A stretch of DNA of 40,225 nt, from positions 1 through 40,225 of the forward strand of contig CAZLHA010000003.1 in NCBI GenBank assembly GCA_964559155.1, in the 5' to 3' direction. Source of the stretch: an uncultured Candidatus Bathyarchaeia archaeon (GTDB lineage Archaea > Thermoproteota > Bathyarchaeia > TCS64). Position numbers and translations under genes: made by a program. Under the pieces are notes generated by a model. That model was not told where the DNA came from. It made no database searches and worked only from the letters and a program-made list of their open reading frames with translations. Below, one piece after another: positions 8,935 to 39,867 of this stretch (position 1 is its first letter; each line of letters begins with the position of its first letter).

Positions 8935-9471
8935 ATGAGTACATCTACTTATAAAACTGTAATTGTTAAGCAGAATGAAGCTCAGAGAGCGCAGGAGGAG
9001 CTGACCGCTGTCTCCACGATTTATCCCGGCGCTCTTGTTGAGATCACCTCTGCAGGCAAGGTACAGCATCATTCAAACGTTGCACAGAACGCAGCTATCA
9101 AGTTTGCGCTTGAGGACAATCTTCAGGGCGAAGGTCTTGATGACACCTATGCCGCAGACGATGTGGTTCAGGTATGGACTCCTCAGCGCGGTGATATGGT
9201 TTTCGCTGTTCTGAATGACGGAGAGGATATCAGCATCGGTGATTTCCTTGAGTCTGCCGGGAATGGTTTCCTGCAGAAGCATGTCGCTGATATTGCTGAA
9301 GGCGGAAGCTCTGCCGAGTCGGTTTCTGACACCACGATTTATGCACATGCAATCGTGGGTATCGCCAGAGAGGCGCTTAACCTTTCAGGATCAAGCGGTG
9401 CAGAGAGCTCCGGCGGTGTTGGCGAGATGATCGGCGACTGGGGTCGAAGAATACTCATTGAAGTATTGTAA
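8935..9471 (+). CDS. Putative head decoration / capsid-associated protein (DUF2190-like)
   Basis: GGAGGG RBS. 178 aa, located between the scaffold-like and major capsid genes. PGALVEITSAGKVQHHS resembles the DUF2190 family. Contains an S/G-rich segment, LSGSSGAESSGG. Confidence 0.4.
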   Translation: MSTSTYKTVIVKQNEAQRAQEELTAVSTIYPGALVEITSAGKVQHHSNVAQNAAIKFALEDNLQGEGLDDTYAADDVVQVWTPQRGDMVFAVLNDGEDISIGDFLESAGNGFLQKHVADIAEGGSSAESVSDTTIYAHAIVGIAREALNLSGSSGAESSGGVGEMIGDWGRRILIEVL

Positions 9472-9500: not shown

Positions 9501-10571
9501 ATGAGTGCGAATATTGATGCAATTCAGTCCGGCAAACCTTTTGGTCAGGTTGCTCAGAAGTATATGGCCGCAGGGCTTTCCGTTGACAATATGCGTCCTT
9601 TCGTTGGCGAGGATCAGGGGTCTTATGTGACCCGGGTTGTCGGCAATGACAGAAAGGCCGTCAACATTCCTCCTCAGACGATAGTGGGTAATGCCACGCT
9701 GAGGCGCGATGAATGGAAAGACCTCGATACGGCTGTTATGAAAGCCGCAAGAGAAAGACTTGTCGGTGTTGGTGATCTTACAAGCCGAGGGCTTGAATAC
9801 AACATTACAAACGGAATGGGTCGAACAGTTCTTGAGTATCATGACATGAACGATCCCGGAGAGGCCGACATTGGTATGTCGCCGGTTGCAAAGGGCAAGA
9901 ACGATGCGCCTGATTACAGCACGAACTATCTGCCGCTGCCCATCATTTACAGTGATTTCACTGTTGATGAACGGCTTTTGCAGACGAGCCGTAACATGGG
10001 CGATTCCATCGACACTACCATGGCGGAATCTGCTGCAAGACGGGTAACGGAAAAGCTCGAAACCCTCTTCTTCACGGACACAAGCTATGCATTCGGTGGT
10101 GGTACGATTTACAGTTACATCAGCCATCCTGACATCAACAGCGTTTCCCTTTCTACAAACTGGGATGCTTCTGATGGTGCCGGTTCAGCCATAATCGACG
10201 ACGTAAGGCAGATGAAAAAGGCAGCCATTGGTGCGAGAAAATATGGCCCCTTTATGCTTTATATCCCGACCGATTATGAAACCATGATGGATCTGGATTA
10301 TTCTTCACAGTACCCGAAGACGATCAAACAGAGAATCCTCGAAATAAGCGGCATTCTTGATGTCAAGGTTGTTGACACTATGCCTGATGACACAGTGCTT
10401 CTGGTCGAGATGACATCCGAGACCGTGCGGCTTATCAACGGCCTCCCTATCAAGGTTGTTCAGTGGGACACTCAGGGTGGAATGATTCATCATTTCAAGG
10501 TTATGACGATTCAGGTGCCGCAGATCCGGTCAGATCAGAACAGCAGAAGCGGTATCGTAAAACTGGCTTAA
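9501..10571 (+). CDS. Major capsid protein, HK97-fold (encapsulin/Linocin_M18-like)
   Basis: AAGGAG RBS, 356 aa. Segments LRRDEWKDLDTAVMKAARERLVGVGDL, LPLPIIYSDFTVDERLL and DTTMAESAARRVTEKLETLFF match the encapsulin-like capsid pattern. Sits at the canonical position. Confidence 0.78.
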   Translation: MSANIDAIQSGKPFGQVAQKYMAAGLSVDNMRPFVGEDQGSYVTRVVGNDRKAVNIPPQTIVGNATLRRDEWKDLDTAVMKAARERLVGVGDLTSRGLEYNITNGMGRTVLEYHDMNDPGEADIGMSPVAKGKNDAPDYSTNYLPLPIIYSDFTVDERLLQTSRNMGDSIDTTMAESAARRVTEKLETLFFTDTSYAFGGGTIYSYISHPDINSVSLSTNWDASDGAGSAIIDDVRQMKKAAIGARKYGPFMLYIPTDYETMMDLDYSSQYPKTIKQRILEISGILDVKVVDTMPDDTVLLVEMTSETVRLINGLPIKVVQWDTQGGMIHHFKVMTIQVPQIRSDQNSRSGIVKLA

Positions 10572-10616: not shown

Positions 10617-11297
10617 TTGGAATTGAAATGGGATATCGGCAAAACACAAACTTTGGATAGAGTCGCCATAATCGGTGGCGGGTGGTCTTTAAAAAATAAA
10701 AACTTGGGGGAGGTCGCTAAAAACATAACGACAATTTGCGTGAATGTCGTTCATGATAGCATTAATATTGATGATCTTGATTTCGTTTTCACCGGGGATT
10801 GCGATCCTTATATGTATATGCGGGGGCAAGATGTCGAAAAGACCACCACAATCGTTACGATGTGTCCTAAAGCCAAGAATAGCGACCTCTCTTATTTTAT
10901 CCCGAGAAATTATGATAAGCTGACCGGGATAAGCGACAACCCGAAAAAACTGTGCTGGAACGAGAACTCAGGCGCTGCCGCCATCGAATTCTCTATTATT
11001 TCCGGTGCTAAAAAGATATATTTGTTCGGATTCGACATGAAGAACAGCCCGTATGGCGAATCCAGATTCCACAGAATTTATCGTGCCCGCGACCCCAAGA
11101 AATATTCATACAACAATCAGCCGAAATACAGTAAGTTTTTCGAGGGTTTCAAACAGATATCCTTGGAAGCCAAAGAGAGAGGGGTCGAGATCATCAATGC
11201 CAACACGGCATCTGCATTGGATGTGTTTGTTAAAATGCCGTTCGACGAAGCGATAGACGAGATAATCGCAAAAGAGACAGAGGAGATTGTATTATGA
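10617..11297 (+). CDS. DUF115/MptE-like (Maf-type) putative glycosyltransferase, paralog 1
   Basis: Motifs VAIIGGGWSL, NSGAAAIEFSIISGAKKIYLFGFDM and VEIINAN. Clear paralog of 11656..12357. The start may be TTG 10623, 7 nt after AGGAGA. Confidence 0.5.
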   Translation: MELKWDIGKTQTLDRVAIIGGGWSLKNKNLGEVAKNITTICVNVVHDSINIDDLDFVFTGDCDPYMYMRGQDVEKTTTIVTMCPKAKNSDLSYFIPRNYDKLTGISDNPKKLCWNENSGAAAIEFSIISGAKKIYLFGFDMKNSPYGESRFHRIYRARDPKKYSYNNQPKYSKFFEGFKQISLEAKERGVEIINANTASALDVFVKMPFDEAIDEIIAKETEEIVL

Positions 11298-11656
11298 CAC
11301 AGGTAAAGATTAAATGGCGGAAAAAAGGCGGTGGTATCCATTATAAAGACGGTAAAAAATATAACAAGGGCGATCTTCTCTGGGCATATCCGGAAGACTT
11401 GACTCCCGGGGATAAAAGTATCTTTGAAAGAGCTGACGGCGCCGCTCCCCAAGATGACAACCCTGCGGAAAAGACACAGCCCGAAGATGCTGGCCTTGAA
11501 ATCGTACACAAAGGCTTTGGCCGGTACAATGTTATTCGCAAAGATACCGAAGAGCCGATCAACAGCAGATATCTGAAAAAGGATGAAGCCCTTGCCCTGC
11601 TTGAAGATGGCGAAAAGGGAGAGGATATCGCAAAGGTTGCATTCGGAGAAGCCTGA
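11294..11656 (+). CDS. Hypothetical protein (120 aa, basic N-terminus, acidic centre)
   Basis: ATGA overlap upstream and TGATG overlap downstream. No motif recognised. Confidence 0.5.
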   Translation: MTQVKIKWRKKGGGIHYKDGKKYNKGDLLWAYPEDLTPGDKSIFERADGAAPQDDNPAEKTQPEDAGLEIVHKGFGRYNVIRKDTEEPINSRYLKKDEALALLEDGEKGEDIAKVAFGEA

Positions 11657-12357
11657 TGCAATGGAAACCAATCAGGATTTGGGACGATGATGAATGCTGG
11701 ATAATCGGTGGCGGATATAGCATAGCGGAACAATTCAATATTCCGTCAAACGTAAAGCCGAAATACCCGTATGATTATCCCGAGTTTGGCAAATATCTTG
11801 AGCCAATACATTCAAAGAAGGTTATAGCGGTCAACAATTCTATGTTTCTCGGGGATTGGATTGATGTTCTCTTTTTTGGAGACAAGTCATGGTGGACACA
11901 GCATCATTTTCAGGTCATTAAGTTCAGCGGGTTGATTGCCACCTGCGCCCCTGAGTTTCGGACAGGTTTCAAGCATATTAAATGTATTCCGAAGAACAAA
12001 AAGAAAGGAACCGGGATGACTTTGAACAAACCGCTTATAAGTTGGAACCACAATTCCGGATTCGCTGCGATCAATCTTGCATATCATCTCGGAGCCAAAA
12101 GAATTATCCTGCTTGGCTTTGATATGAACCGATGTGCAAATACAAACAATATCCATTGGCATGCAGGGCATATCGAGAAAGGCCCTAACAGGGGAAAAGA
12201 TAACTCCAAGCAGCCAAACCCGGTTTTTAATCGTCATATAAAGGGCGAGAAGGATATCGCCAGAGATGCGAAGAAAGCCGGTCTTGAAATTATCAACGCA
12301 AGCCCTGATAGCAGGTTGACAGCTTTTAAAAAAATGAATGTTAAGGAGCTTTTATGA
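11656..12357 (+). CDS. DUF115/MptE-like (Maf-type) putative glycosyltransferase, paralog 2
   Basis: Motifs CWIIGGGYSI, HNSGFAAINLAYHLGAKRIILLGFDM and LEIINAS, in the same order as in 10617..11297. Confidence 0.5.
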   Translation: MQWKPIRIWDDDECWIIGGGYSIAEQFNIPSNVKPKYPYDYPEFGKYLEPIHSKKVIAVNNSMFLGDWIDVLFFGDKSWWTQHHFQVIKFSGLIATCAPEFRTGFKHIKCIPKNKKKGTGMTLNKPLISWNHNSGFAAINLAYHLGAKRIILLGFDMNRCANTNNIHWHAGHIEKGPNRGKDNSKQPNPVFNRHIKGEKDIARDAKKAGLEIINASPDSRLTAFKKMNVKELL

Positions 12358-13136
12358 TACACTTTTGTTCCAGCTTATGCCTCAACAGTCCTTATAAATG
12401 GGCCTATGCCAAAGATTGTCAGAATTACAATGATACAGATACGTATCTCGAATTTGCGACCATGATGCTGAGAAGTGTTTATAAACATCATCCTGACAGC
12501 AGGTTTTATTTGCTCGGGATGAATCTGGATGACGCTCAGGTACAGACCTTAAAGAACGCTCATCCTCTGGTAAACATCCTTCCTTTTCATTTCGGGAAAG
12601 TAACCAATCAGCAGCATTACAAGGGGATAATAGAATGGAACCGGATCGTTTTTATTTGGCAAAAACTTGCGATGGAAAAGGTAGCTATCCCGAAAGGGGA
12701 TATTCTTGTATATCTCGACATTGATTGTCTTCTTCGTGCACCTTTGAAAATTTTCAAATACATGACAGACCTCAAGTTGGATATTGGGGTATTGAAAAGA
12801 AACGCCAAGCAATACGATAAAGAGATCAATATGGGCGTGTTGTTCATTCGGAACACTCAGCCGTCCCGGGACTTTATCTCTGCTTGGATGGACGGGCTTC
12901 CGGCCCCTGAAGGGTTACTGCCTAAACGGGCCGATAGTGAACGCACATATTCTCATTCTCAGGCGATTTTCAATCATTTGATGCAGAGTAAACAGTACAA
13001 AGGAGTCCAATTTTGGCCTTTGCCTACTCAATTCAATGATAAACGTTTGAGCAATGATTCGACGATATGGCATGGAAACCGAGGCAATAAATTTGACAGA
13101 TTAAAAGATTTCAGAAAGGAGATAAGCCAATGGTAA
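12354..13136 (+). CDS. GT-A glycosyltransferase, family 8-like (DxD)
   Basis: LVYLDIDCLL (DxD) and NMGVLFIRN fit the GT8 YLDxD / NxGV pattern. ATGA overlap with the upstream gene. Confidence 0.55.
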   Translation: MIHFCSSLCLNSPYKWAYAKDCQNYNDTDTYLEFATMMLRSVYKHHPDSRFYLLGMNLDDAQVQTLKNAHPLVNILPFHFGKVTNQQHYKGIIEWNRIVFIWQKLAMEKVAIPKGDILVYLDIDCLLRAPLKIFKYMTDLKLDIGVLKRNAKQYDKEINMGVLFIRNTQPSRDFISAWMDGLPAPEGLLPKRADSERTYSHSQAIFNHLMQSKQYKGVQFWPLPTQFNDKRLSNDSTIWHGNRGNKFDRLKDFRKEISQW

Positions 13137-13855
13137 AGAAAGATGAAGAGCTGTTTGCTGAAGATGGAAAAAGCAGATTATTTGAACCGATTTTACTCCA
13201 TACCGTCGGGCATGAAGGGTCATCCAGTGTGATGAGCATTTTAAAGACGTTCGGGCTTTTTCTGGGCACGGATCTCTCTGTCGGCAAGCGCCCGTTCTAT
13301 GAATACAAGCCGATACAGAAAATAAACAAACATATCATACAAGCTAAAGGATTTCCTTATCCATGGGATCTCTCAAAAAGAGGAGAGATATTAAAGCCTT
13401 TTCTGAGGGATTATAAATATATTCAGAAGGTAAGAGGAGACATTGCAAAGAGCATTCTCGATCAGGGTTTTCATATTAAACTTGATGTGCCGTGGGGATG
13501 GAAAGACCCAAGAACAACCATCACCCTTCCTTTCTGGATAAAAGTATTTCCCCGGTGCAAGATAATTTTCCTGAAAAGAGACAAAAAAGATGCGAAGCCG
13601 GGCTGGCATGCTTATGGTGACTGGGGCTATGACTTCTATGACGCTTATCGAAAAGAAGATATGGCGTATGTTTCGGTCGAATCGAACAACGAATATTTTG
13701 TTCTTTCGTATGACGAGCTTTCCAATAATTTCGCTGAAACGTGTAAGAAAATATGTGATTTCATGGAGGTTCCGATTTCAGATGTCAGGATAGATAAGGC
13801 AAGGAGGCTGTGGAAGCCCAAGTATGATGGTAAAATCAAAAATGTTTTTGGTTAG
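13130..13855 (+). CDS. Sulfotransferase-like P-loop protein (weaker paralog of 18230..18982)
   Basis: EPILLHTVGHEGSSSVMSIL sits at the 5'-PSB position and CKIIFLKRDKKD at the 3'-PB position. Both are collinear with the clearer motifs of 18230..18982. Confidence 0.4.
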   Translation: MVKKDEELFAEDGKSRLFEPILLHTVGHEGSSSVMSILKTFGLFLGTDLSVGKRPFYEYKPIQKINKHIIQAKGFPYPWDLSKRGEILKPFLRDYKYIQKVRGDIAKSILDQGFHIKLDVPWGWKDPRTTITLPFWIKVFPRCKIIFLKRDKKDAKPGWHAYGDWGYDFYDAYRKEDMAYVSVESNNEYFVLSYDELSNNFAETCKKICDFMEVPISDVRIDKARRLWKPKYDGKIKNVFG

Positions 13856-13858
13856 AAG

Positions 13859-14092
13859 ATGGGATTAAAAAAAACACACATAGATTTGATTGACAAATAT
13901 CTGTCAAAGAAAGCGAAGACGGCTGTTTCGTTCGGGTATCCTGAGCTGAAATGGGAAAAGGCGCCTGAATCGTATAAGTTTTTCAAGGAGCATCTTGGGC
14001 TGGAGTTGACCGTCTATGATATTAAAAATTACGGGCATGGCGAGCATTATGTTGACCTGAACAGAGCGGTGGTATATGATTCCATCAAGTGA
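13859..14092 (+). CDS. Hypothetical small protein (77 aa)
   Basis: ORF 3 nt after the upstream stop, overlapping the next gene by 17 nt. No confident motif. Confidence 0.35.
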   Translation: MGLKKTHIDLIDKYLSKKAKTAVSFGYPELKWEKAPESYKFFKEHLGLELTVYDIKNYGHGEHYVDLNRAVVYDSIK

Positions 14093-14768
14093 AAACAGCA
14101 GGATATTAATTATAACAGCGCATCCGGATGATGAATTGTTGTCTTGCGGAGGGCTGATATATCAGGAGAGCAAATTTCACAAGATTGATGTCTGTGTTGT
14201 CACTCACAAAGGAGAAAGATGGCAGGATAATTTTTTCAAGGTCTGTGATGAGCTCGGTGCAAACCGGGCGATAAGCCTTGATATCCCTCTCTGGATAAGC
14301 AAGAAAGGCCGTGTTCTATATTTTTTTGACAGGGACGAGTTTGAACTTGCCATCTCGAAGGAGATACCCGGGGATTTCCTCTATGACTATGACCTGTACT
14401 TAACCCATGGGCTTGACGGAGATATTGACAATCATCCTCATCACAAGCATTTGGCAGACATTATTACAAAGAGCTTTTTCGGCAGACAGATATGGCATTT
14501 CATGGCGTTCCCGAGGCTTGGAGTAAAGAGCCACCATCCGTTATACGCATATCATCAGAGTCTTGAATGGCAGGAGTCTTTCTTCAAGAAGGGGTTTCTC
14601 TCACCGAGACTGGCCGAGAGGGTAGACAAGGTTTATCAGCTCGATGAAACGACCGTCATCAAGAAAAAGGCCTTGAAAAAGATATACATGAAAAACAAGG
14701 ATCACGATTACAGGATGGTGAATTATCCTATCGAAATGTTCGTTAAAAATAAGGAGTGTTGCGCTTGA
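14076..14768 (+). CDS. PIG-L / LmbE family N-acetylglucosaminyl deacetylase
   Basis: Canonical RILIITAHPDDELLSCGG motif near the N-terminus, with a downstream His cluster DNHPHHKH. Confidence 0.8.
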   Translation: MIPSSENSRILIITAHPDDELLSCGGLIYQESKFHKIDVCVVTHKGERWQDNFFKVCDELGANRAISLDIPLWISKKGRVLYFFDRDEFELAISKEIPGDFLYDYDLYLTHGLDGDIDNHPHHKHLADIITKSFFGRQIWHFMAFPRLGVKSHHPLYAYHQSLEWQESFFKKGFLSPRLAERVDKVYQLDETTVIKKKALKKIYMKNKDHDYRMVNYPIEMFVKNKECCA

Positions 14769-15784
14769 TTATTGCCGCTGTCATGTATAGTCCGTTTCCT
14801 GTCAATGAAGTCCGTGGGCTATCCGGCTATGGAGGGGCCCCAAGATTTTGGGAAGGCTTTGCACATGGTCTCGATGAAGTGTGCAGGGAGAATGGCCCTC
14901 AGCACGAGCTTTGGATTTTTGCACCGGGGAAATCAACATCTGGAATCTATGCCAACAATTTTGTACGAGCAGGGGGACAACCCCTCGATCTTGATGCGTT
15001 GCTCATAAAACTCAAAGAATTAAACCCTGATATCGTTATAGGCAATCATCCTTATTGCCTGTCAGGTGAAATCGTAGGAGCTTTTCCTCATCTTTGTCGG
15101 ATCGTTGGATATAAAAAACAGCTTGGGAAATATAGATTCTTAAAAAACTTTGTTACGAACAGTTATTTTGGCAGAGCGCATTATAAAAAGAAGAATTGGC
15201 CGGTAATATATCAATGCTGTCATCCGGACGAGGTTGAATTTGTCGGGCATAAACAGGATTATTTTTTATTTATGTCGAATATCACAAGAGGGTTTAAAGA
15301 AAAGGGCCTTCTGACAGCCATTAACCTTGCGAATAAGACAGGCATAGATTTACACATAGTTGGGCCTTCGGGTGGCGACAGATCCTCTTTAAAACGCCTG
15401 AAAAAGATCATCAGCGGGAGGAAAAACATAAAGTATGTCGGGCCGCTGTCAGGTGAAGCAAAAAAGATGGAAATAGCCAATGCGAAAGCTCTGCTGTATC
15501 CGATTGATGACCAATGCAAAGAAATGGGAAGCACTACTGTAATAGAATGTGCATACTGCGGAACACCTGTCATAACCAATGATGTCGGATGCATGCCTGA
15601 ATATGTCTGTCATGGGAGAACCGGGTATCTCTGCAATAATGAAGACGAATATATCAAGGCTATAAACGATATTGAAGATATCAATCCATTCGATTGCTGC
15701 CAATGGGCCGAAACATTGTTTGACTGGCGGGACATTGCAGAAAAATACATTAATCTTTGTCAGGAGATCATAGAAAAAAATTGA
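14756..15784 (+). CDS. GT-B glycosyltransferase, family 4-like
   Basis: TTG start. C-terminal EMGSTTVIECAYCGTPVITNDVGCMPEYVCHGRTGYL matches the GT4 E-x7-E region. Confidence 0.78.
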   Translation: MLRLIIAAVMYSPFPVNEVRGLSGYGGAPRFWEGFAHGLDEVCRENGPQHELWIFAPGKSTSGIYANNFVRAGGQPLDLDALLIKLKELNPDIVIGNHPYCLSGEIVGAFPHLCRIVGYKKQLGKYRFLKNFVTNSYFGRAHYKKKNWPVIYQCCHPDEVEFVGHKQDYFLFMSNITRGFKEKGLLTAINLANKTGIDLHIVGPSGGDRSSLKRLKKIISGRKNIKYVGPLSGEAKKMEIANAKALLYPIDDQCKEMGSTTVIECAYCGTPVITNDVGCMPEYVCHGRTGYLCNNEDEYIKAINDIEDINPFDCCQWAETLFDWRDIAEKYINLCQEIIEKN

Positions 15785-16524
15785 TAACATTCGTCTGCTT
15801 CAAATGGCAATTTAATAATAAGGAATATCAACACCTTCGGAGGCTGAAACAGTTCTCCGGCAAGCATGTGAATATTCTGCACAGGATGGTGTCGAAATAT
15901 TATCGGGACAGGTTCCGGTTCGTGTGCATCACAGACGATGAAAAAGAGATAAGCAGCAAGGTCGATACATTCCCTCTATGGGATGATTACAAGAAACTCG
16001 GCGGCTGTTACTTGAGGCTGAAAATTTTCGACAGAGATTTAAACAGAGAGATAGCGGATGGATCTGATTATATCGTATGCATCGACCTTGATGCTGTTAT
16101 CGTGGATGACATCACATCATTTCTGAATGCACATAAAGGCAGGGGGGATCTTGTCACTTGGCATCGTCCCGGAGAAAATAACCCGTATTGTGGGGCGATA
16201 TGGATGATGCGACCCGGAACATGCAGTTTTTTATGGGAAGATTTTTCAGAACAGAAGATGAAAGCGATAAAGCAGGATACCGTGAAGCCGACAAAAAATC
16301 TCTTGTTGAGCAAAGGGACTGACCAAGCATGGATTAATTATAGACTTGGCGAAGATCATGATGCCTCGGTCAAGTCGTTCGGTTCGGGACTGTATGATTA
16401 TAAACGATTGAATTCAGAAGATGTTTTGCCCAATGATGCCAAGATAGTCTTTTTTAACGGCAGGCGGTATATGCCTGAGAATTTTAAACATTTAAAATGG
16501 GTCAAAGATAATTACAATGGATGA
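15757..16524 (+). CDS. GT-A-like glycosyltransferase (FVCFKW / CITDD / DLDAVIVDD family), paralog 1
   Basis: Motifs ITFVCFKW, FVCITDD and CIDLDAVIVDDI (DxD). The start may instead be TTG 15781, overlapping the upstream TGA. Confidence 0.5.
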   Translation: MSGDHRKKLITFVCFKWQFNNKEYQHLRRLKQFSGKHVNILHRMVSKYYRDRFRFVCITDDEKEISSKVDTFPLWDDYKKLGGCYLRLKIFDRDLNREIADGSDYIVCIDLDAVIVDDITSFLNAHKGRGDLVTWHRPGENNPYCGAIWMMRPGTCSFLWEDFSEQKMKAIKQDTVKPTKNLLLSKGTDQAWINYRLGEDHDASVKSFGSGLYDYKRLNSEDVLPNDAKIVFFNGRRYMPENFKHLKWVKDNYNG

Positions 16525-17122
16525 ACAATTAAATCCATGGACAGTAGAGTCTGGTCTTAAATACTGGTATAAGCACAAGGAATCACATTATATAAACCAG
16601 ATTGCCAAGAAGTATAATAAGTTCGATGTCATGAGAATTATCAAAAAACATTATGGAAAAGACAAAATCCACACTGTCGTGGACATTGCTGGCGGGAAAT
16701 ACGGCGGGTTTCTTTATTTTTTCAAAGAAGGCAAGGAGCGTTATCTTGTAGATATTCTTGCTGGTTATTTCTCCGGAGTGGATGATAAGTTAAACAAGCT
16801 ACCTGATGACGTCACGCCGATTGTTTGTGATTTTACCGGCATGCCTTTCAAAGAAAGCGTAGATATTATGTTCAGTCAGGAATCAATAGATCATTGTGTT
16901 TCGGAGGATCACTACTATGAAAGCATCGACAAAATTGTTGACGCCCTCTCACCCGGTGGCTTGCTTTTCCACGAATGGATGGTTCGCAAAGGTCAAATCG
17001 AAGGGCATTTGATTGTGCGGGATTGCACGGAGGTCATAAAAGATTTCGGGAAACTATCTGTTATTCAGAATCAACGGGTGAAAAAACGATGCTATTTGGT
17101 CTTTAAAAAAGAGGAAAAATGA
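16517..17122 (+). CDS. Class I SAM-dependent methyltransferase
   Basis: Motif I VVDIAGGKYGG, a post-I acidic residue (YLVDIL), and LSPGGLLF. Confidence 0.68.
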   Translation: MDEQLNPWTVESGLKYWYKHKESHYINQIAKKYNKFDVMRIIKKHYGKDKIHTVVDIAGGKYGGFLYFFKEGKERYLVDILAGYFSGVDDKLNKLPDDVTPIVCDFTGMPFKESVDIMFSQESIDHCVSEDHYYESIDKIVDALSPGGLLFHEWMVRKGQIEGHLIVRDCTEVIKDFGKLSVIQNQRVKKRCYLVFKKEEK

Positions 17123-17821
17123 ATGGGAAAAAAGGATAAAAAAAATGCAGTGAACGTGGTCTGTTTTTATTGGCCGGGGAAAGACCGACCAGGCTGGTCG
17201 GACGAAAGCAAAGCCCGGCAATATATTTCCACCTTCTATAGTATGTTCAAGCGAAATACAACGATACCGATAAACGTCCATTGTATTACGACTCTTGAGC
17301 CATTCACCCCGTTCATGACGTTTCATCGGCTTGAATCTCCGAGCTGGAAAGGCTGTCTGCCGAAATATTCCGTGTTCAATAAGGATCTGGGAATCAAAGG
17401 CCGGGTGTTTGCGTGTGACCTTGACGTGGTTGTTGTCGGAAACATGGACGAGATTCTTTCATACGATGGCCCTCTTGCGACTCGCTCTACTTTCGTTGGC
17501 GAGAAACTGTCCGGCGGGGATATGGTGGCTTTTAACGCCGGGTCCGGAGATTATAACTGGATATGGGATGAGTTTCGAGATGACCCGGAAGGTGTCGAGC
17601 AGTTCACCGAGGGCCGGGAGCGATGGTTATATCGGTATCATCCGGAATTAAAAGGCAAATTGGTTTATTTGCAGGATGTTTTCAAAGATCAGATTTACAG
17701 TTACAAAAGGCACATAAAACCAAGGAACACGTTACCAAAGAATGCAAGGATAGTCAGTTGTCATGGCAAGCCTAGGCCGCATGAAATACAAGAGCAATGG
17801 CGGATACAACACTGGAGATGA
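17123..17821 (+). CDS. GT-A-like glycosyltransferase, paralog 2 of 15757..16524
   Basis: Motifs VNVVCFYW, VHCITT, ACDLDVVVVGNM and ARIVSCHG, collinear with paralog 1. Confidence 0.5.
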   Translation: MGKKDKKNAVNVVCFYWPGKDRPGWSDESKARQYISTFYSMFKRNTTIPINVHCITTLEPFTPFMTFHRLESPSWKGCLPKYSVFNKDLGIKGRVFACDLDVVVVGNMDEILSYDGPLATRSTFVGEKLSGGDMVAFNAGSGDYNWIWDEFRDDPEGVEQFTEGRERWLYRYHPELKGKLVYLQDVFKDQIYSYKRHIKPRNTLPKNARIVSCHGKPRPHEIQEQWRIQHWR

Positions 17822-17822
17822 T

Positions 17823-18242
17823 ATGATATTAATAACCGGGTCAGAAGGGTATATCGGCACAAATTTGAAGAATCTCCTGCGATACCAAGGTATTGTCTTT
17901 GAAGGGATTGATAAAAAGATAGGCTATGACGTCCTGCAATATGAGGATTTTAAAGATGTAAATCTGATTGTCCATCTTGCTGCTGTTTCGGGGATACAGG
18001 CTTGTAATAAAGATTTAGACATGGCAATCCGGGATAACATTTCGACTGCGAATCATGTTTTCCGTGGGGCTTTTGCAAATAACATCCCGGTCGTTTTTAC
18101 GTCCTCTCAGGCTGCGAAAAATCCGCTCCTGAATTCATACGCTATGATGAAAAAAATTATCGAGAAGGAGGCTGAGAGGCTGAATGATATGGGGGCGAAG
18201 ATAGAGGATCTCTTCCAACCCAAAATTCAATGGAGCTTTTGA
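17823..18242 (+). CDS. Truncated NAD-dependent epimerase/dehydratase (SDR) - N-terminal Rossmann half only
   Basis: MILITGSEGYIGTNL (GxxGxxG), LAAVSG, and SSQAA...YAMMK (S...YxxxK). The ORF stops about 20 aa after the catalytic YxxxK at 139 aa, whereas extended SDR epimerases are about 300 aa. Confidence 0.6.
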   Translation: MILITGSEGYIGTNLKNLLRYQGIVFEGIDKKIGYDVLQYEDFKDVNLIVHLAAVSGIQACNKDLDMAIRDNISTANHVFRGAFANNIPVVFTSSQAAKNPLLNSYAMMKKIIEKEAERLNDMGAKIEDLFQPKIQWSF

Positions 18243-18982
18243 TTAATATGGACGATCTGACAGACAAACCAATCTTGATTACAGGCGCCGCCCGGTCAGG
18301 CACATCTATGATCGCTGGTATCATTTATATCTGTGGAGCGTTCAAGGGCGATACATCCGGGCCAAATAAAAACAATCAGAAAGGTATGTTTGAAAACTTT
18401 CATGTCCGGAATAAAATCGTCAAGCCTTATCTCGAATCAATAGGTGCTGATCGTCTCGGTCAATACCCGTTACCGGATATTAACAACCTTCCGGTCAACC
18501 CCGCCTTTGGGAGGGACATCATAGAGGTTATGAAATCGCAGGGGCACAAGTCTGGTCAATGGATGTACAAGGGCGCCAAGATTTGTCTCTGCTGGCCGAC
18601 ATGGCAGTTCGCTTTTCCGGAAGCCAAGATTATCATTGTCAGAAGAAAAACCCCTGATATTGTCAGTAGCTGTTTAAAAACAAGTTTTATGAAAGCTTTT
18701 CATCGTCAGGCGACATTAAAAGAAATCGGTGCGAGAAACTCAAGAGAAGGCTGGCTATGGTGGGTGCATCAGCATGAAAGGCGCATGGTTGAGATGTGCA
18801 AGGCTTGGAACGATGTTAAATTCGTGTGGCCTGAGAGATTAATCGAGGGCGATTACGATCAAATGCGAGATACAATTCAATGGCTTGGCTTGACTTGGAA
18901 TCAAAAAGAGGTTATGAATTTCATAGAGCCTAAGTTGTGGAAAACAAGGCAAAAATTAAAAATAGGAGCAGCAAATGGCTGA
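18230..18982 (+). CDS. Sulfotransferase (PAPS-dependent family-like)
   Basis: ILITGAARSGTSMIAG matches the 5'-PSB loop and KIIIVRRKTPDIVSS the 3'-PB motif. The start may be ATG 18248. The stop overlaps the next (neck) gene by 8 nt. Confidence 0.62.
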   Translation: MELLINMDDLTDKPILITGAARSGTSMIAGIIYICGAFKGDTSGPNKNNQKGMFENFHVRNKIVKPYLESIGADRLGQYPLPDINNLPVNPAFGRDIIEVMKSQGHKSGQWMYKGAKICLCWPTWQFAFPEAKIIIVRRKTPDIVSSCLKTSFMKAFHRQATLKEIGARNSREGWLWWVHQHERRMVEMCKAWNDVKFVWPERLIEGDYDQMRDTIQWLGLTWNQKEVMNFIEPKLWKTRQKLKIGAANG

Positions 18983-19367
18983 AGAATCTGATTGGAGAAC
19001 AGGCGACAGTGAGGTTCGAGAGTTGTTGACGTCAGAAGAAAGCTCTGCGATTTCCGACCTTGATCCATATATTTACGCAGCTCATCTTATCGTAGACCAT
19101 ATTCCCTCGAGCAGCTACGGAGCCAACCATCTTGAGCAGATAGAGCGATGGTTGTCGGCCCATATCGCTTCTTCATCGTATAGCGCAGAAGGAGAGATGG
19201 AGCAAATGAAAATGGGGGACACCTCCATTAAGTTTCGATCTCAAACATCCTCAGAAAGAGCTGAATATCTGGCAACAACAAGGTACGGAAGAACCGTGAT
19301 GCAACTGGATGTATACAATACATTGTGTGGCGGCAAAAGACAGGGCGCTAAATTAAAGGCATGGTGA
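18975..19367 (+). CDS. Putative head-tail adaptor/connector protein
   Basis: 130 aa, first gene of the neck block. ...YIYAAHLIVDHI...ERWLSAHIASS resembles DUF4054/gp6-like adaptors. The call is mainly positional. Confidence 0.4.
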   Translation: MAEESDWRTGDSEVRELLTSEESSAISDLDPYIYAAHLIVDHIPSSSYGANHLEQIERWLSAHIASSSYSAEGEMEQMKMGDTSIKFRSQTSSERAEYLATTRYGRTVMQLDVYNTLCGGKRQGAKLKAW

Positions 19368-20719: not shown

Positions 20720-21142
20720 ATGAGTGATGCAGTATCGGGTGTTGGAGCATTATTCCGAAAATGGACAGGATCTGCTTGGGTTAGTATAGGCGAGGTTCTC
20801 ACCATATCCGGGCCCAACATGAGCAGAGAAACTATTGATGTAACGAACCTTGCCTCTACGGGCGGTTATCGTGAATTCATTGCATCTTTTAGAGACCCCG
20901 GAACCGTTTCTTTCAATATGAACTTCAATCGGTCAGATTACGACACAATGAAGACAGACTTTGAAAGTGATGTAGTACAGGATTATGAGATTATGCTCCC
21001 GGACACGGATAACACAAGTCTCGAATTTTCAGGTCTCGTAACGGAGCTTCCTCTGGATATTTCCGGGGATTCTCAGATTACGTGCAATGTTTCGATCAAG
21101 GTTACTGGTCAGGTAACGCCTGAGTCAGGTTCCGGTTCTTAA
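20720..21142 (+). CDS. Major tail (tube) protein
   Basis: AGGAGG RBS. ISGPNMSRETIDVTNLASTGGYREFIASFRDPGTVSFNMNFN fits the TP901-1/phi13-type tail tube pattern. Precedes the G/T chaperones. Confidence 0.7.
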   Translation: MSDAVSGVGALFRKWTGSAWVSIGEVLTISGPNMSRETIDVTNLASTGGYREFIASFRDPGTVSFNMNFNRSDYDTMKTDFESDVVQDYEIMLPDTDNTSLEFSGLVTELPLDISGDSQITCNVSIKVTGQVTPESGSGS

Positions 21143-21885: not shown

Positions 21886-24800
21886 ATGGCTTATGAACTG
21901 AGTGATATATATGTTAAAGTCGGCATGGACATGACCGAGTTCCAGAAAGGGGTCAAGCAGGTTCATAGCAGCTTTAGCAAGATGCAAAAAAATACTGCCG
22001 CTGTCACTTCAGGTTTCAAAAAATTAACCGTTGCAACGGCAGGCGCTGGATATGCTGCCTCTAAAAGCATCGGATATTTCGCTAAGTATGAGAGAAGCCT
22101 TTCGAGAATCCAGTTGTTGGGGGATGCAACAGCGGATACAATGAATACTGTTCGTGATGTCGTAAAAAAAATGGGTGCTACGACTGAGTTCAGTGCTTCT
22201 CAGGCCGCAAAGGGTATAGAGCTTTTGACAATGGGTGGTCTTGAGCTTCAGAAATCCATGGCAGCCTTACCGGAAGTGATCAACCTCGCCACAACCTCAC
22301 AGACAGACATGGCTCGTGCAGCAGACATCGCTACGAATGTTATGGGTCAGTATAGCCTTGCTGCAAATGAGCTCGTTCGTGTTAATGACGCGCTCGCAAA
22401 AGTTCAGTTGACATCGAATACCAATGTTCTTCAAGCCGCAACGGCCTTTGAATACGCAGGTACGACAGCAGCGACTATGGGCCTTGAGATAGAGGAACTT
22501 GCCGGTTGGATAGGCATCATGGCCGAAAAAGGTATAAAAGGCCAGAGAGCCGGTCGTATGTTCAGGAACGTTATGTTGAGCATGAATGACCCAACCGTAG
22601 AGGCTAAAAAAGTTTTTGAAGAATACAATGTTGAGCTTGAAAAATCGCCGGGAGTGCTGCGTCCTGTCGGCGATATAATGCAGGACATCGCCACGAAGAT
22701 TACAAACCAAGGCGACAGGATGAGAATCCTGAACAAAGAAACTGCTGACGTCAATAAAGTTTTTCAGGCCTATGCTGATGGTACGCTTCCGGATTATATC
22801 AGACAAATTGAAACGGCAGACGGGGTGAGTGCCAATTTCGCTGAGACCTTGCGGAAAGATGTAAAAGGTGAGATCGACACCTTGATTGCAACAATTGAAT
22901 CTGTCGGTATTGCCATCTGGGAAAGGTATAGTGACGAAATCGAGGAAGCGATTGAAGCTGTCGCTGATACAATTAGGAAGCATCGTCTTGACATTGTCGA
23001 TATGACAGATGGTATTGCGAATGCGATAGAAGGCATAGCTAATATTGATGTTGATAATTCTGCACTTGCAGCGATGTTCGACACAATGAAAAAGATGATG
23101 GGGCTTTTCAGCTCTTTACCTCCGGAAATCGCGGGCGCAACAGGCATGGGGCTTGTTGGCACTTTTCTTTTTGGCGCGAAGGGTGGTTTGCTGCTTGGTG
23201 GCGGTTCTTACTTGCTCAATGAGCTTGATGATTTTTTCACCGGATTAGATGCTGTCAGGCTTGGCGAGATGTCTTGGGCAGATTTTTTTGGTGATGAGGA
23301 TAAGTTTGAAGCAAAAGTAAACAAGTATAATGAGAAGCTTAAAGATGCCGCCGTAAATTTCGAGGGAGTTGTCGCCGAGCAGTTTACTGAGATAGGGGAT
23401 CTCACTCACTATATTGATGTTGCTGAAAATAAATTTGATGTTCTTTTCAATAATCTGCAAGATGCCGCTCGTATGTTCGGCATAAATTCAAAAGCTTATA
23501 ACGAGGCTGGACAGGCGCTTGAAGATTTTGGCGTCAAGCTTTACAGCTTTAAGCAGCAGAGGTTGGCGCTACGAGACGAAGAATTCATGGACCCGCAGAC
23601 GTTGGCTGATTTGGCTTACTTCAACGACCTGAATGAAAAGAGTGCTGAAAGGATAAAAGAAGTCGGGGCTGCATATAACAATACATCGGGAGAAGCGGGT
23701 GCGTGGAGCAAAGATCTCGATGAGTTAATCCTTAAATATGTCGAAGAAACAAAAACGCTGGGGATGTCAGAGCGTGAGCTGGCCCTTCATAACGCTGAAA
23801 TGAAATTGGGCACCAAAGTTTACGAAGCCAACATAAAAGAAATCAAAAAATTTATTAACGCACATTTTGATAAAGAAGCACAGCTTGAGAAAGACAATAG
23901 CGTTAAAAAGGTAATTGACGAATTAAAAAGAGAACGGGAGGCTCTTTATCAGACAGATCAGGAGCTTTACGTTTATAATAAATTAAAAGAAGCTGGAGTT
24001 GAAGCCGGATCAGAAGCCGCAGAAACAATAAAAGAAGAAGCGAACAGGGTTTTTGAATTAAAAGAAAATCTTGAAGAGTTAAGAGAGGCGGCTGAAAATT
24101 TTGATTACGGTGATTTGCCGGAAGCAATCGGCCTTGGAGGGGCTGGCGAAGATGACGATGAATATTTCAAGAAAAGAGAGGATGCTTACAAAAATTTCTT
24201 GGATGATACGCTTGACTGGGAGCTTGAAGCATTAGAAGAACGATACGATCTCGCTATAGATCATGCAAAAGAGCAGGGGGAAGATACCGCTGCAATAACT
24301 GAGCAGTATGAAAAAGAGAAAGCGGACATAGTCGCCAAGCACACCGAAAAAACAACGTCCGAGATGGAGAAAAAATGGAATCACGTTACTGAGAATATTC
24401 ATGACGCAATGGCCGATACGTTCGAGGACATGTTTGATGAAGGGCTGGATTCCTGGGAGGACTTTGCGGACTCCATCCTTGATATGATGAAATCCGCTTT
24501 TGCAGAGATGGCCGCTTATGATCTGATGATCAGCATGGGGTTCGATGTTGGAGAAGGGACGGGGCTGAGTGATTTCCTGGAGTCCAGCGGAATAAGCTCA
24601 ATGGCGTCAGAAAATAGTCTGTTGGGATCTGTCCTTGGAGGTGTCGGAGATTTGATGGGCGGACTAAAAAGTTCTTTGTCTACCCTGACTTCACAAATCT
24701 CTTCTTTTGGGGCTGTCGAGGCTGGAACGGGGGCCACAGCAGGATTGTCATTATCTGCTGTTGCAACGGCTGGTCTTACTGCCGCCTTGGTATTGTTTTC

Positions 24801-27243
24801 CGATGAGATAGGGGAAATTTTTAATGATCTTTTCGGCAGTGAAGATCCTGAACCGTGGATAGGCTTGTCAGATGAAATTGAAGGGTACCATGAATCAGTG
24901 AGTGACAAAATGTTGGAAGATTGGGGTCTCATGATAGATTGGGGGGACCTGCAGGAATCCGATCAAGAAATCGTCTCGGCACTTAATGAATTTTTTGATG
25001 AGGCGTTCACTGCAATAGATGATGCTCTTGCAACGGATCTACAGAAAGTTTTTTCTGATCTTGATCTTGATTCTGGTGATATATACGTTGATCTCCTCGA
25101 ATATGAGGATGATCTTGAAGGGGCCGCTCTTGAGGTTCTGGATCAGCTTTTTGGCGAGACATTGCCTGATCTTATTTCATCTTATGAGCTTGATGAGGGC
25201 TTTTTCGATTTGTCTTTCTTCGAGGATATCCAGGATGAAGAAGAAGACTTGTATTCTACTTTTGCCGGCTTGCTCGATATTATGGATGCCTTTGGTTCCC
25301 AGTCAGAGTTTCTTGATGCCTTGAATCGACAAATTGACGAGTTCAACTTAGGCACAGAAGAGGCCTATGAAAACCTTGAAATAATGGCTTCTGCTTTTTC
25401 TGAGATAGACAGCGTTTTGGAGGCTCTTGCTGCTACAGAAACGATGTCCAGTATGCGGGACACTCAGGACGCTTGGGACTCATTGGTTGAAACTCTTGAG
25501 GAAGCCAATGCCACCACTGAGCAAGTAGATGAAGCATTACAGGCAATGAATGAAACTCTCGGCGCCACTATATCAGGCATAACCGCATCCAGCCTTGAAT
25601 CTGCTCTGACTGGTGACACAGACATAACGGAATTGCTTTCTGAAGGGTTAAGAAGCACATTCGCATCGGCTATCGCTGAATCGTTATATAGTGATGTATT
25701 TGAGGCTTTCAACGAAGGTATTGGAGAGGTTTATGAAGAAGGAGGCTTGGACGCTGTTGCAGAAGCTCTCCCGGATCTTATTGAATCATTGGATCTTGAA
25801 ACGATCACAGAATCACAGGAAGAATTGGAAGTGTTGGAAGAGATCCTTGCAGAATTGGGCTTGACCGCAAGTGATGCGGCAAAAGCTGTTGAGGGATTGT
25901 CCGCCGCCTCTATACAAGCGGCCCAAGCTGAAATTGCGGGAACATCCGGGGAATATGAATTATCACAGATTGCACAAAGGCTGGATTGGCAGGAGATATA
26001 TGGAGGAATTCCGTCTGAAGAGGAGATCCGTTCCGGCATCGAATGGATTGTGGGAGCATCTACGGACGAAATAGCTGACCTTGCTACATCATTAGGGCTT
26101 TCTACATCTCAGTTGTTAGACGATGTGGGCTCACTGAGCGAAGCATTCGATTCCATTGACGAGGCGGCAGCAGATGCAGCAGATGCAACAGAGGACATGG
26201 CGGAAGCGTTGCGAAATGAGATAGAGGCGCTGAAAGATACTATTGGTGCAATGGAAGCTTTGGAGGATCTATTTGAGAACATATCTGGTGCTGGTGATCT
26301 TGCGGCTGTTCAAAGCATGGAATATTTTGAACGCCGATATCAGGAGTTATTTGAAGAGGCCCAGACTGGTGGAGAGCGAGAAGTTGAGAACTTCACTGCT
26401 TTCGCTGAAAAATATCTCAAGTACGCACAAGGCTTTGGGAATTACGAAGAGCGTGCCTCAGATGTTCTGGGTGATATAGAAGAGCTGGAAGATAATATTT
26501 CTGATGGCCGCACCCTCAGTGATTTGTATGATCAGTTAGATGTAACAAATGCCGAACTGGACGAGATTGAAAAAAGCACAGCAGCAACGGCGCAAGGCAT
26601 GGCAGATGCATTAGGGGAAGCCCTTGAAGATCTGATGGAAACCACCACAACCCCTGGGTGGGAGCAGGAAGGCTGGAGTGAAAGTGGCATGACCGGCTTG
26701 CGGGATCTATACAGGGAAGCTATGGAGATTGGAATTGAAGGCGGTCTTGGATCTGGGTTTGAGATGGGAGAAGGCTGGCTCGGTGAAGGTTCAGGGGTAG
26801 ATATTCAACAGCTTTCTACTGGTGGGTACAAAGCCACCTTATACGGAGAAGGCGGAGACGAATTGGCGTCTGGTTATTTTTCCAGTATTGAAGGGATTAC
26901 CAAATCAGATGTTTGGGAGATTGCCACTCAATCTCAGGCCATTATGGATCTTTGGGAATCTATGTTTGGCCCCGGTGGTACGAAAGGATATGCTTCCGGC
27001 GGATATGCTACAGGCTTGAGTGTGGTTGGAGAACAAGGGCCTGAGATAGTTGATTTTGGTTCTCAGGGGGCAGAGGTGTACAGCAACGAGGAATCAGCAG
27101 GCATGATCGAAGGGGCATCAGGCGGCCCGACTCAAATCGTTCTTCAGGTTGATCGTAAGGTATTAGGAAAGGTGATAATCGAAGAAGCCAAATATAATAA
27201 GGCGTTTGGCAAACAAATAATCAAACAAATACAGGCGGCTTGA
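21886..27243 (+). CDS. Tail tape measure protein (1785 aa)
   Basis: GAGGAG RBS. The N-terminal TMP core reads ...MGATTEFSASQAAKGIELLTMGG.... Size and position fit. The C-terminal GYASGGYATGLSVVGEQGPEIVDFG motif is common in TMPs. Confidence 0.9.
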   Translation: MAYELSDIYVKVGMDMTEFQKGVKQVHSSFSKMQKNTAAVTSGFKKLTVATAGAGYAASKSIGYFAKYERSLSRIQLLGDATADTMNTVRDVVKKMGATTEFSASQAAKGIELLTMGGLELQKSMAALPEVINLATTSQTDMARAADIATNVMGQYSLAANELVRVNDALAKVQLTSNTNVLQAATAFEYAGTTAATMGLEIEELAGWIGIMAEKGIKGQRAGRMFRNVMLSMNDPTVEAKKVFEEYNVELEKSPGVLRPVGDIMQDIATKITNQGDRMRILNKETADVNKVFQAYADGTLPDYIRQIETADGVSANFAETLRKDVKGEIDTLIATIESVGIAIWERYSDEIEEAIEAVADTIRKHRLDIVDMTDGIANAIEGIANIDVDNSALAAMFDTMKKMMGLFSSLPPEIAGATGMGLVGTFLFGAKGGLLLGGGSYLLNELDDFFTGLDAVRLGEMSWADFFGDEDKFEAKVNKYNEKLKDAAVNFEGVVAEQFTEIGDLTHYIDVAENKFDVLFNNLQDAARMFGINSKAYNEAGQALEDFGVKLYSFKQQRLALRDEEFMDPQTLADLAYFNDLNEKSAERIKEVGAAYNNTSGEAGAWSKDLDELILKYVEETKTLGMSERELALHNAEMKLGTKVYEANIKEIKKFINAHFDKEAQLEKDNSVKKVIDELKREREALYQTDQELYVYNKLKEAGVEAGSEAAETIKEEANRVFELKENLEELREAAENFDYGDLPEAIGLGGAGEDDDEYFKKREDAYKNFLDDTLDWELEALEERYDLAIDHAKEQGEDTAAITEQYEKEKADIVAKHTEKTTSEMEKKWNHVTENIHDAMADTFEDMFDEGLDSWEDFADSILDMMKSAFAEMAAYDLMISMGFDVGEGTGLSDFLESSGISSMASENSLLGSVLGGVGDLMGGLKSSLSTLTSQISSFGAVEAGTGATAGLSLSAVATAGLTAALVLFSDEIGEIFNDLFGSEDPEPWIGLSDEIEGYHESVSDKMLEDWGLMIDWGDLQESDQEIVSALNEFFDEAFTAIDDALATDLQKVFSDLDLDSGDIYVDLLEYEDDLEGAALEVLDQLFGETLPDLISSYELDEGFFDLSFFEDIQDEEEDLYSTFAGLLDIMDAFGSQSEFLDALNRQIDEFNLGTEEAYENLEIMASAFSEIDSVLEALAATETMSSMRDTQDAWDSLVETLEEANATTEQVDEALQAMNETLGATISGITASSLESALTGDTDITELLSEGLRSTFASAIAESLYSDVFEAFNEGIGEVYEEGGLDAVAEALPDLIESLDLETITESQEELEVLEEILAELGLTASDAAKAVEGLSAASIQAAQAEIAGTSGEYELSQIAQRLDWQEIYGGIPSEEEIRSGIEWIVGASTDEIADLATSLGLSTSQLLDDVGSLSEAFDSIDEAAADAADATEDMAEALRNEIEALKDTIGAMEALEDLFENISGAGDLAAVQSMEYFERRYQELFEEAQTGGEREVENFTAFAEKYLKYAQGFGNYEERASDVLGDIEELEDNISDGRTLSDLYDQLDVTNAELDEIEKSTAATAQGMADALGEALEDLMETTTTPGWEQEGWSESGMTGLRDLYREAMEIGIEGGLGSGFEMGEGWLGEGSGVDIQQLSTGGYKATLYGEGGDELASGYFSSIEGITKSDVWEIATQSQAIMDLWESMFGPGGTKGYASGGYATGLSVVGEQGPEIVDFGSQGAEVYSNEESAGMIEGASGGPTQIVLQVDRKVLGKVIIEEAKYNKAFGKQIIKQIQAA

Positions 27244-39787: not shown

Positions 39788-39867
39788 TGTGGTGTGCGCT
39801 ACAAAGACGCCCCGGTAAATTTATCCCACGAGTCAACTATGGACTGGCAGGTGCGGGGAGCTTTCTA

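Follow-up and report, generated by a model that had tools for sequence, protein, structure and literature searches.

What does a sulfotransferase gene do between the capsid and the connector genes of a tailed phage? We addressed this question for a 40,225-base contig (CAZLHA010000003.1), which was analysed over its whole length and is called the window below. It is one of 245 contigs in a metagenome-assembled genome (MAG; GCA_964559155.1) of an uncultured Candidatus Bathyarchaeia archaeon. The gene in question, ST-A (18230..18982, + strand, 250 aa), encodes a sulfotransferase of the type that uses 3′-phosphoadenosine 5′-phosphosulfate (PAPS), a member of the Sulfotransfer_3 superfamily. It lies at the 3′ end of a sugar-chemistry gene block, an 8.4-kb glyco island (10617-18982) between the major capsid protein (MCP) gene and the connector genes of a siphovirus-type late module. 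On balance, we consider it probable that ST-A uses PAPS to sulfate a glycan, which is placed on virion proteins by a partner transferase encoded in the same island (11656..12357, + strand). A preliminary description of this DNA had pointed out ST-A and a weaker paralog, here called ST-B (13130..13855, + strand, 241 aa). Both open reading frames (ORFs) are present on the + strand and carry the peptides quoted for them.

The probable true start of ST-A is Met7 at 18248. This position was chosen by gene callers for the near-identical protein P0001 (244 aa), and relatives of ST-A mostly begin a few residues ahead of the sequence PILITG. Two motifs characteristic of PAPS binding were located. The 5′-phosphosulfate-binding (PSB) motif ILITGAARSGTSMIAG comprises residues 15-30 (18272..18319, + strand) and the 3′-phosphate-binding (3′PB) motif KIIIVRRKTPDIVSS comprises residues 133-147 (18626..18670, + strand). 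In the profile search that the preliminary description had proposed, ST-A passed Pfam Sulfotransfer_3 (PF13469) with 28.2 bits (cut-off 27) over profile positions 1-205 of 216. The same family was matched by all 39 aligned ST-A relatives (best E 1.2e-8), among which no kinase or ATPase family was matched at E <= 0.01. NCBIfam gave no match for any island protein, and PHROGs contained no family for ST-A or ST-B.

Structure prediction, likewise proposed beforehand, gave a confident result. The AlphaFold2 (AF2) model of ST-A calculated on the family alignment reached a pLDDT of 91.3 and a pTM of 0.88. In this model the PSB motif is predicted to form a strand (15-19), a loop and a helix (23-34), with R22-S23-G24-T25-S26 in between, while the 3′PB motif is modelled as a strand (133-137) followed by a helix (141-150). 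The secondary structure of both motifs agrees with the published motif description (PMC5562738). When the model was compared with the PDB using Foldseek, the best 25 matches were all sulfotransferases (E 2.5e-5 to 2.7e-3), including a bacterial enzyme, the tyrosylprotein sulfotransferases (TPSTs) TPST1 and TPST2, tick TPST, Stf1, Stf9 and the CurM sulfotransferase. Nucleoside monophosphate (NMP) kinases appeared only from rank 26 onward, with E values of 2.7e-3 and worse. The best viral structure matches in BFVD were annotated sulfotransferases. A kinase or ATPase identity of ST-A was rejected, as no such family was matched and kinase folds ranked lower. The possibility raised in the preliminary description, that the motifs belong to another P-loop family, was not borne out, since good matches were confined to sulfotransferases, in families as well as in structures.

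Single-sequence phmmer searches with ST-A and ST-B against the PDB yielded noise or marginal sulfotransferase matches only, and a narrow family profile (A1) missed the TPSTs in that database. Only a broadened profile (A4), built from 53 diverse ST-A relatives (33-57% identical; mean column identity 38%), reached them. TPST1, TPST2 and tick TPST were matched with E values of 5e-8 to 4e-7 over about 200 positions, and all PDB matches of A4 down to E ~0.4 were sulfotransferases. With the residue mapping anchored on the PSB arginine of ST-A as the equivalent of TPST1 R79, the residues R22, K114, R139 and S147 of ST-A aligned with R79, K159, R184 and S192 of TPST1. The PSB loop R-S-G-T-S matched the PRSGTT of TPST1. 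Across the 53 relatives only R22, S23 and R139 were invariant. Sixteen columns were at least 90% conserved, among them G24, E55, N56, K114 and S147, while H182 was invariant only among close relatives. ST-A has the profile score, the 5′-PSB and 3′-PB motifs and the fold of the PAPS-dependent sulfotransferase superfamily. Judged from its sequence, it is by class a PAPS-type sulfotransferase with intact and strongly conserved cofactor motifs, and it would bind PAPS and transfer sulfate.

Membership in the TPST family is a different matter. The catalytic residues of TPST2 are R78, E99, K158 and S285 (PMC5562738). ST-A matches the Arg and the Lys (R22, K114) but neither the Glu nor the Ser, and being shorter it is missing the C-terminal TPST region with S285. 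Because the Glu is unmatched and the S285 region is missing, ST-A was not filed as a TPST. Nevertheless, its relationship to these enzymes brings up direct sulfation of virion proteins, with ST-A acting in a TPST-like manner (or on Ser/Thr) and the partner transferase acting separately. TPST1, TPST2 and tick TPST are the top profile matches and among the best fold matches of ST-A, with the catalytic Arg and Lys in place, and ST-A relatives are fused to protein-binding tetratricopeptide repeats (TPRs). Such fusions are found in the database proteins P0253, P0266, P0270 and P0277 (385-910 aa), in which ST-A-type domains are joined to long TPR arrays; one TPR-fused protein has a second Sulfotransfer_1 domain besides. 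In cellular relatives such arrays hint at proteins as substrates or partners. Conserved tyrosines in an acidic context can be added, namely Y74 (SDYD, 54 of 64 homologs) and Y89 (QDYE, 64 of 64) of the tail tube protein and Y72 of the decoration protein (26 of 27), but in structural proteins such conservation is expected from folding alone. The missing counterpart of the catalytic Glu at a conserved aligned column and the missing C-terminal part also speak against a TPST-like reaction. Furthermore, the Sulfotransfer_3 family is broad and includes enzymes for many kinds of acceptor, and the obligate sialyltransferase-like partner and its natural fusions to ST-A-type domains, described below, fit a sugar acceptor more easily. 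Taking both sides together, we regard direct protein sulfation as improbable.

The second copy of the fold in the island differs from ST-A. ST-B, described beforehand as a weaker paralog with ILLHTVGHEGSSSV and KIIFLKRDKKD at the motif positions, indeed carries both peptides and has a sulfotransferase fold. It passed Sulfotransfer_3 (PF13469, 30.0 bits, cut-off 27) as well as Sulfotransfer_1 (PF00685, 27.5 bits, cut-off 22), and hhalign aligned its N-terminal half with the ST-A family (probability 88%, E 3e-6). The invariant residues of the motifs are missing, however. Its PSB reads H-E-G-S-S opposite R-S-G-T-S in the hhalign alignment, and GHE-GSS against MHRSGTS in a MAFFT alignment with canonical relatives, in which Gly also replaces the Ser of the 3′PB. 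ST-B has the profile score of the superfamily but not the basic residue and Ser of the PSB or the Ser of the 3′PB. Both changes are also found in P0122, the sole close relative (80% identical). Only seven database matches were obtained for ST-B, and it was absent from the related loci. Its activity is doubtful because the PSB Arg and the 3′PB Ser are missing. ST-B is probably a rare accessory protein with a non-canonical or inactive sulfotransferase fold.

Could ST-A, too, lack sulfotransferase activity, either as a kinase- or ATPase-like P-loop protein or as a dead fold that serves as an assembly or structural factor? The sulfotransferase fold is akin to that of the NMP kinases, which do appear among the weaker fold matches. 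The Pfam score is barely over threshold, the TPST catalytic Glu is not matched at a conserved column, and ST-B provides a degenerate example of the fold in the same island. On the other hand, the 39 relatives matched no kinase or ATPase family, and the PSB loop reads R-S-G-T-S rather than the Walker A consensus GxxxxGK[ST]. In a family with a mean column identity of 38%, cofactor and catalytic residues lead the conservation, headed by the three invariant ones, which argues for retained chemistry.

Additional evidence came from genes next to ST-A. For conservation and synteny statistics we used 83 related loci chosen by ST-A similarity. ORFs for adenosine 5′-phosphosulfate (APS) kinase (PF01583, ~120-130 aa) were detected in 30 of them. 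They scored 54-69 bits against a cut-off of 21.1, the match covering the N-terminal two thirds of the profile, and the next-best family reached at most 32 bits. All but one of these 30 ORFs abut ST-A on either side (~35% of the 83 loci), and 29 adjacent APS kinases make sense only with a PAPS user. A protein devoid of sulfotransferase activity is therefore very improbable. In one locus (L037:9270-9989) an APS_kinase domain is fused to a cytidylyltransferase-like (nucleotidyltransferase) domain directly 5′ of the ST-A homolog. The domain order resembles that of bifunctional PAPS synthases, and the fusion may be a compact phage enzyme for PAPS supply. No APS kinase gene was found in the window. 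As for a PAPS source in the host, which the preliminary description had suggested looking for, the MAG binned with the contig encodes ATP sulfurylase and a full APS kinase, but the host of the contig is uncertain.

An indication of the acceptor comes from the partner gene. The product of 11656..12357 is a putative MptE-like/DUF115 transferase resembling the sialyltransferase Cst-II (GT42), and it matched phrog_4603 with E 1e-35. The Pfam family MptE-like was matched by 27 of 35 relatives, while the protein itself stayed below threshold (17.8 vs 34.6). Its AF2 model (pLDDT 87.6) had as top Foldseek matches the Cst-II sialyltransferase (E 1.4e-4), the hydroxymethyldihydropterin pyrophosphokinase (HPPK) MptE and a Pasteurella sialyltransferase. 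In loci holding both the MCP and the ST-A gene, the interval between the two ranged from 1.7 to 9.7 kb and contained a phrog_4603 ortholog of the partner in 32 of 32 cases. A phrog_1962 glycosyltransferase was also present in 28 of these 32 loci, the remaining island content varied, and the smallest islands consisted of the phrog_4603 gene and ST-A alone. In a prophage of Euryhalocaulis caribicus the two genes are adjacent at a different position, between head morphogenesis and protease/MCP genes, indicating that the pair moves as a unit.

Moreover, five natural fusion proteins (472-508 aa) combine an N-terminal ST-A-type domain with a C-terminal MptE-like domain (58-85 bits, cut-off 34.6). 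One of the fusion genes lies two genes 5′ of a phage adaptor/tail protein gene, and two others follow a gene resembling UDP-glucose dehydrogenase. The cooperation with neighbouring glycan enzymes that the preliminary description had put forward was strengthened by the obligate partner gene, the fusions and the adjacent APS kinases of relatives. Partner conservation, fusions and frequent APS kinases therefore suggest that phages of this kind sulfate sugars carried by their own particles.

The distribution of ST-A was examined in sequence databases. Its relatives comprised 867 cluster representatives at E <= 1e-3 in a 90% database, nearly all of them unnamed metagenome proteins. In an exhaustive 50% library 361 clusters were found at E <= 1e-30 and 3,668 at E <= 1e-3, and relatives were located on 277 IMG/VR viral contigs. 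A tblastn search of ST-A against 50,697 GenBank phages (INPHARED) gave no match at E <= 1e-3. Prokaryote data with one genome per species contained only five loci with ST-A relatives, two of which are prophage regions of the cultured alphaproteobacteria E. caribicus and Microbaculum marinum. The relative in the latter (L098, 5998-6618) is 37% identical and is flanked by tail genes and scaffold/MCP genes in a prophage of another type. The neighbouring ORFs scanned there gave no phrog_4603 match, and hence phages outside the main lineage do not all have the partner.

Across the 83 loci the median identity of ST-A was 57.5%, which equals that of the tail tube protein and exceeds that of MCP (50.6%), the large terminase subunit TerL (43%) and the portal protein (40%). 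Connector or tail tube homologs were located at most 2.6 kb 3′ of ST-A in 79 of the 83 loci. From gene order and conservation, ST-A is a core gene of the late structural module in an uncultured siphovirus lineage.

Prophage enzymes that modify glycans and thereby alter host surface antigens are well known, and bacterial MptE-like/DUF115 enzymes include flagellin-glycan transferases. ST-A might accordingly be directed at the host, where it would modify lipopolysaccharide/O-antigen, capsule, extracellular polymeric substances (EPS), a flagellin glycan or a metabolite for superinfection exclusion or metabolic takeover, its operon position providing just late expression. The occurrence of relatives in prophages of cultured alphaproteobacteria is in line with this, and surveys class phage sulfotransferases as auxiliary metabolic genes (AMGs) with unclear role (PMC10580990, PMC8290583). 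However, ST-A resides within the late structural module, from capsid to connector, in the 79 loci mentioned, and in head or tail modules of unrelated phage types too, while morons and exclusion genes are usually found at module borders with their own promoters. Conservation at the level of the tail tube protein would be unusual for an accessory host-directed gene. Neither a signal peptide nor a membrane segment was visible in the ST-A or partner sequence. The lineage-specific Ser/Gly tail of the tail tube protein, described in the following, likewise argues for a target on the particle. We consider modification of the host unlikely.

Modification of the particle requires an acceptor, and the tail tube protein (20720..21142, + strand; phrog_158) draws attention. 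It ends in a C-terminal Ser/Gly-rich extension, TPESGSGS (21116-21139), to which for example TVNSGSGS corresponds in relatives. A tail rich in Ser, Gly, Ala and Pro extends past the last conserved strand in all 64 lineage homologs, and 60 of them contain SG[SAP] within the last 12 residues. As controls served four homologs (25-36% identity) from cultured phages without an island between capsid and connector. Three of the four end right after the strand; the fourth, from Paracoccus phage Shpa, continues with a short Ala/Gly tail (HAAAGGGS). As a lead, the Ser/Gly-rich tail is the best candidate acceptor, and the capsid or decoration protein could also serve.

Combining these observations, we favour the following course of virion decoration. 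ST-A would be a soluble, cytoplasmic, PAPS-dependent enzyme that is co-expressed late with the structural genes and carries out the last step. The partner, with or without the variable glycosyltransferases of the island, would furnish virion proteins with a sugar or a short glycan while these assemble in the cytoplasm. ST-A would then transfer sulfate from PAPS to the attached sugar, which would result in negatively charged sulfated glycans on the particle. The source of PAPS would be the host or the mini APS kinase that roughly one in three related phages encode beside ST-A. That the acceptor is a glycan, that this glycan sits on the virion and that adsorption or masking is affected are steps we infer. 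Beyond this phage, a widespread and hitherto unrecognised system of post-translational virion modification is conceivable. Its core of an MptE/Cst-II-like and a TPST-related enzyme, sometimes fused or accompanied by an APS kinase of its own, would install sulfated sugars on the tail tube or capsid in several unrelated phage lineages. We advance this wider proposal tentatively, as somewhat short of probable. The sugars would possibly be sulfated nonulosonic or Kdo-type acids.

Several points weigh against sulfation of a virion glycan by ST-A. The Pfam score exceeds the threshold by just 1.2 bits, and the TM-scores to solved sulfotransferases are moderate (0.5-0.57; 0.38-0.57 across the best 25 Foldseek matches). 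A catalytic base is difficult to assign, as E99/E100 of TPST1 align to the non-conserved D41/T42 of ST-A and the at least 90% conserved E55 sits in an insertion relative to TPST. The closest solved relatives sulfate protein tyrosine rather than sugars. For the partner, the TM-score to sialyltransferases is modest (~0.45), and it is not a proven glycosyltransferase because the superfamily includes the pyrophosphokinase MptE. The choice of the 83 loci by ST-A similarity bears on the conservation and synteny statistics, and the comparison of tail extensions rests on four controls, one of them with the short Ala/Gly tail. The sequence occurs solely in DNA runs, all of them from microbial mats. Finally, although its GC content fits, the contig shows the worst tetranucleotide fit of 91 bin contigs of at least 10 kb (r = 0.63), and with this poorest compositional fit in the bin its host is uncertain.

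The MAG was derived from microbial mat metagenomes, and the GC content of the contig is 44%. Pfam and PHROG matches assigned the late module to the siphovirus type, with genes for TerL (2748-4346), portal (4356-5729), head morphogenesis (5729-6595) and a decoration protein (8935-9471). MCP (9501..10571, + strand; phrog_771/phrog_264) forms the upstream border of the island in conserved synteny. The downstream border is the first connector or neck gene (18975..19367, + strand), which was named by position. It had no PHROG or NCBIfam match of its own, homologs are located just 3′ of ST-A in 58 related loci, and the adjacent genes are of connector, Neck1 and terminator types. The tape measure gene (21886-27243) and the phage recombination gene recT (36521-37489) complete the list.

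Directly 3′ of the MCP gene lies a divergent phrog_4603-type paralog of the partner (10617..11297, + strand; E 3e-22). The two proteins are 30% identical, and their genes are separated by a 120-aa ORF (11294-11656), homologs of which were found in only five related loci. With two copies of phrog_4603 the window differs from most relatives, which have a single one. The variable middle of the island (12354..18242, + strand), which includes ST-B, was assigned by Pfam and PHROG matches and encodes on the + strand a nucleotide-sugar glycosyltransferase (12354-13136), a PIG-L deacetylase (14076-14768), a GT1 glycosyltransferase (14756-15784), two phrog_1962 glycosyltransferases (15757-16524 and 17123-17821), a methyltransferase (16517-17122) and a short epimerase-like protein (17763-18242); a small ORF (13859-14092, + strand) follows ST-B. 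The epimerase/dehydratase-like ORF (159 aa) overlaps the annotated ST-A start and corresponds to a Rossmann half up to YxxxK (Pfam positions 1-117 of 240). Either the protein is truncated or it represents a minimal NAD-binding form. The island 5′ of APS kinase and ST-A in one viral contig of 107 kb (L001, 1-9650) contains transketolase halves, a PfkB sugar kinase, alcohol and short-chain dehydrogenases and an 807-aa multi-methyltransferase/GT9 protein, which suggests that an unusual sugar is synthesized within that island.

At the 3′ end of ST-A (junction 18964..18982, + strand) the connector gene begins at an ATG (18975) that precedes the ST-A stop codon (18980-18982), so that the two genes share 8 nt (ATGGCTGA). 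Inside ST-A, 6 nt 5′ of this ATG, lies an AGGAG (18964-18968). The overlap and the internal AGGAG on which the preliminary description had based translational coupling are real. Coupling itself may follow from them, but the overlap is not conserved; in related loci the spacing between ST-A and the connector gene varies, or an APS kinase gene lies between.

The contig ends are without terminal overlap, and a complete circular genome was rejected. Near the right end, beside the phage recombination genes, a mini-CRISPR array (39558-39721) consists of three 32-nt repeats GTCGCTCCCCTCGCGGGAGCGTGGATTGAAAC and two 34-nt spacers. The repeat was found nowhere else in the MAG, the spacers had no match in the MAG or the related loci, and no cas genes were seen nearby. 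The array either belongs to the phage as an orphan array or marks the beginning of host flank. The sole sequence common to the contig and the rest of the bin is a hairpin at 39853-39891, 95% identical over 39 nt to MAG contig C245. This match was rejected as a spacer, being a terminator-like hairpin.

To our knowledge, actinobacteriophages are so far the only phages for which virion glycosylation has been demonstrated, and we found no report of phage virion sulfation in the literature searched. A literature link between encapsulins and sulfotransferases was dismissed, since it concerns natural-product clusters. The ST-A family makes the role of phage sulfotransferases a testable question by offering a defined enzyme, an obligate partner, a gene for PAPS supply in many relatives and a candidate acceptor. 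Two cultured bacteria carry prophage versions, of which that of E. caribicus has the adjacent partner. If the proposed role is true, a charged glycan coat joins the known ways in which phages tune the chemistry of their particle surface, and hundreds of virome genes now labelled 'hypothetical' or 'AMG' become virion-modification genes. Polyanionic particles would represent a new phage surface chemistry that affects adsorption, interaction with EPS or mucus, and masking from antibodies or receptors.

Among known enzymes, TPST1 and TPST2 (PDB 5wrj, 3ap1; PMC5562738) have the fold, the 5′-PSB and 3′-PB motifs and the aligned catalytic Arg and Lys in common with ST-A. In contrast, ST-A is only 13-17% identical to them, shorter, devoid of the C-terminal region with S285/286 and without a membrane anchor, and its genomic partner suggests a sugar rather than a peptide acceptor. 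Bacterial Sulfotransfer_3 enzymes (3rnl from Alicyclobacillus, mycobacterial Stf1 2zq5 and Stf9 2z6v, CurM sulfotransferase 4gbm) are of the same Pfam family and fold and are soluble cytoplasmic PAPS users. They are 10-14% identical to ST-A and act in cellular sulfation of glycolipids and natural products, not in virion operons. The best fold match of the partner, Campylobacter Cst-II (GT42; TM ~0.45), is 13-15% identical to it. GGGPS and LLGFD-type motifs are common to the partner and MptE, and the PHROG label reads 'alpha-2,3-sialyltransferase'. Genes for the synthesis of cytidine monophosphate-activated (CMP-) sugars were not seen in the window.

Sulfotransferases in phages are not as rarely annotated as the preliminary description had supposed. 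Marine examples with PF13469, from Synechococcus phages S-SRM01 and S-SCSM1 and from OM43 phage MVGs, have been reported as isolated genes of the AMG type, with the remark that their function 'remains unclear' (PMC10580990), and several are annotated in BFVD. Their products are structurally like ST-A according to BFVD, yet too distant for tblastn, and published accounts give them no conserved position in the virion module, no partner and no APS kinase.

The closest parallel in gene arrangement is found in mycobacteriophages. In Che8 and Corndog (cluster O), capsid and tail tube proteins are targets of glycosyltransferases encoded in the structural operons (Freeman et al. 2023, as related in PMC11600133 and PMC12582341). 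As far as these accounts describe them, the mycobacteriophage islands place glycosyltransferase and methyltransferase genes within the virion structural operon, an arrangement to which the island of the window appears analogous. Its glycan-enzyme genes are embedded in the structural operon and conserved in related loci, as expected of a virion glycosylation island. Hosts and phage lineage differ, the system described here is known from its genes alone, and its conserved core consists of an MptE-like/Cst-II-like transferase and a sulfotransferase. We know of no sulfotransferase or APS kinase described in mycobacteriophage glycosylation islands. Compared with mycobacteriophage virion glycosylation, the predicted sulfation step, its dedicated partner and the APS kinase are new.

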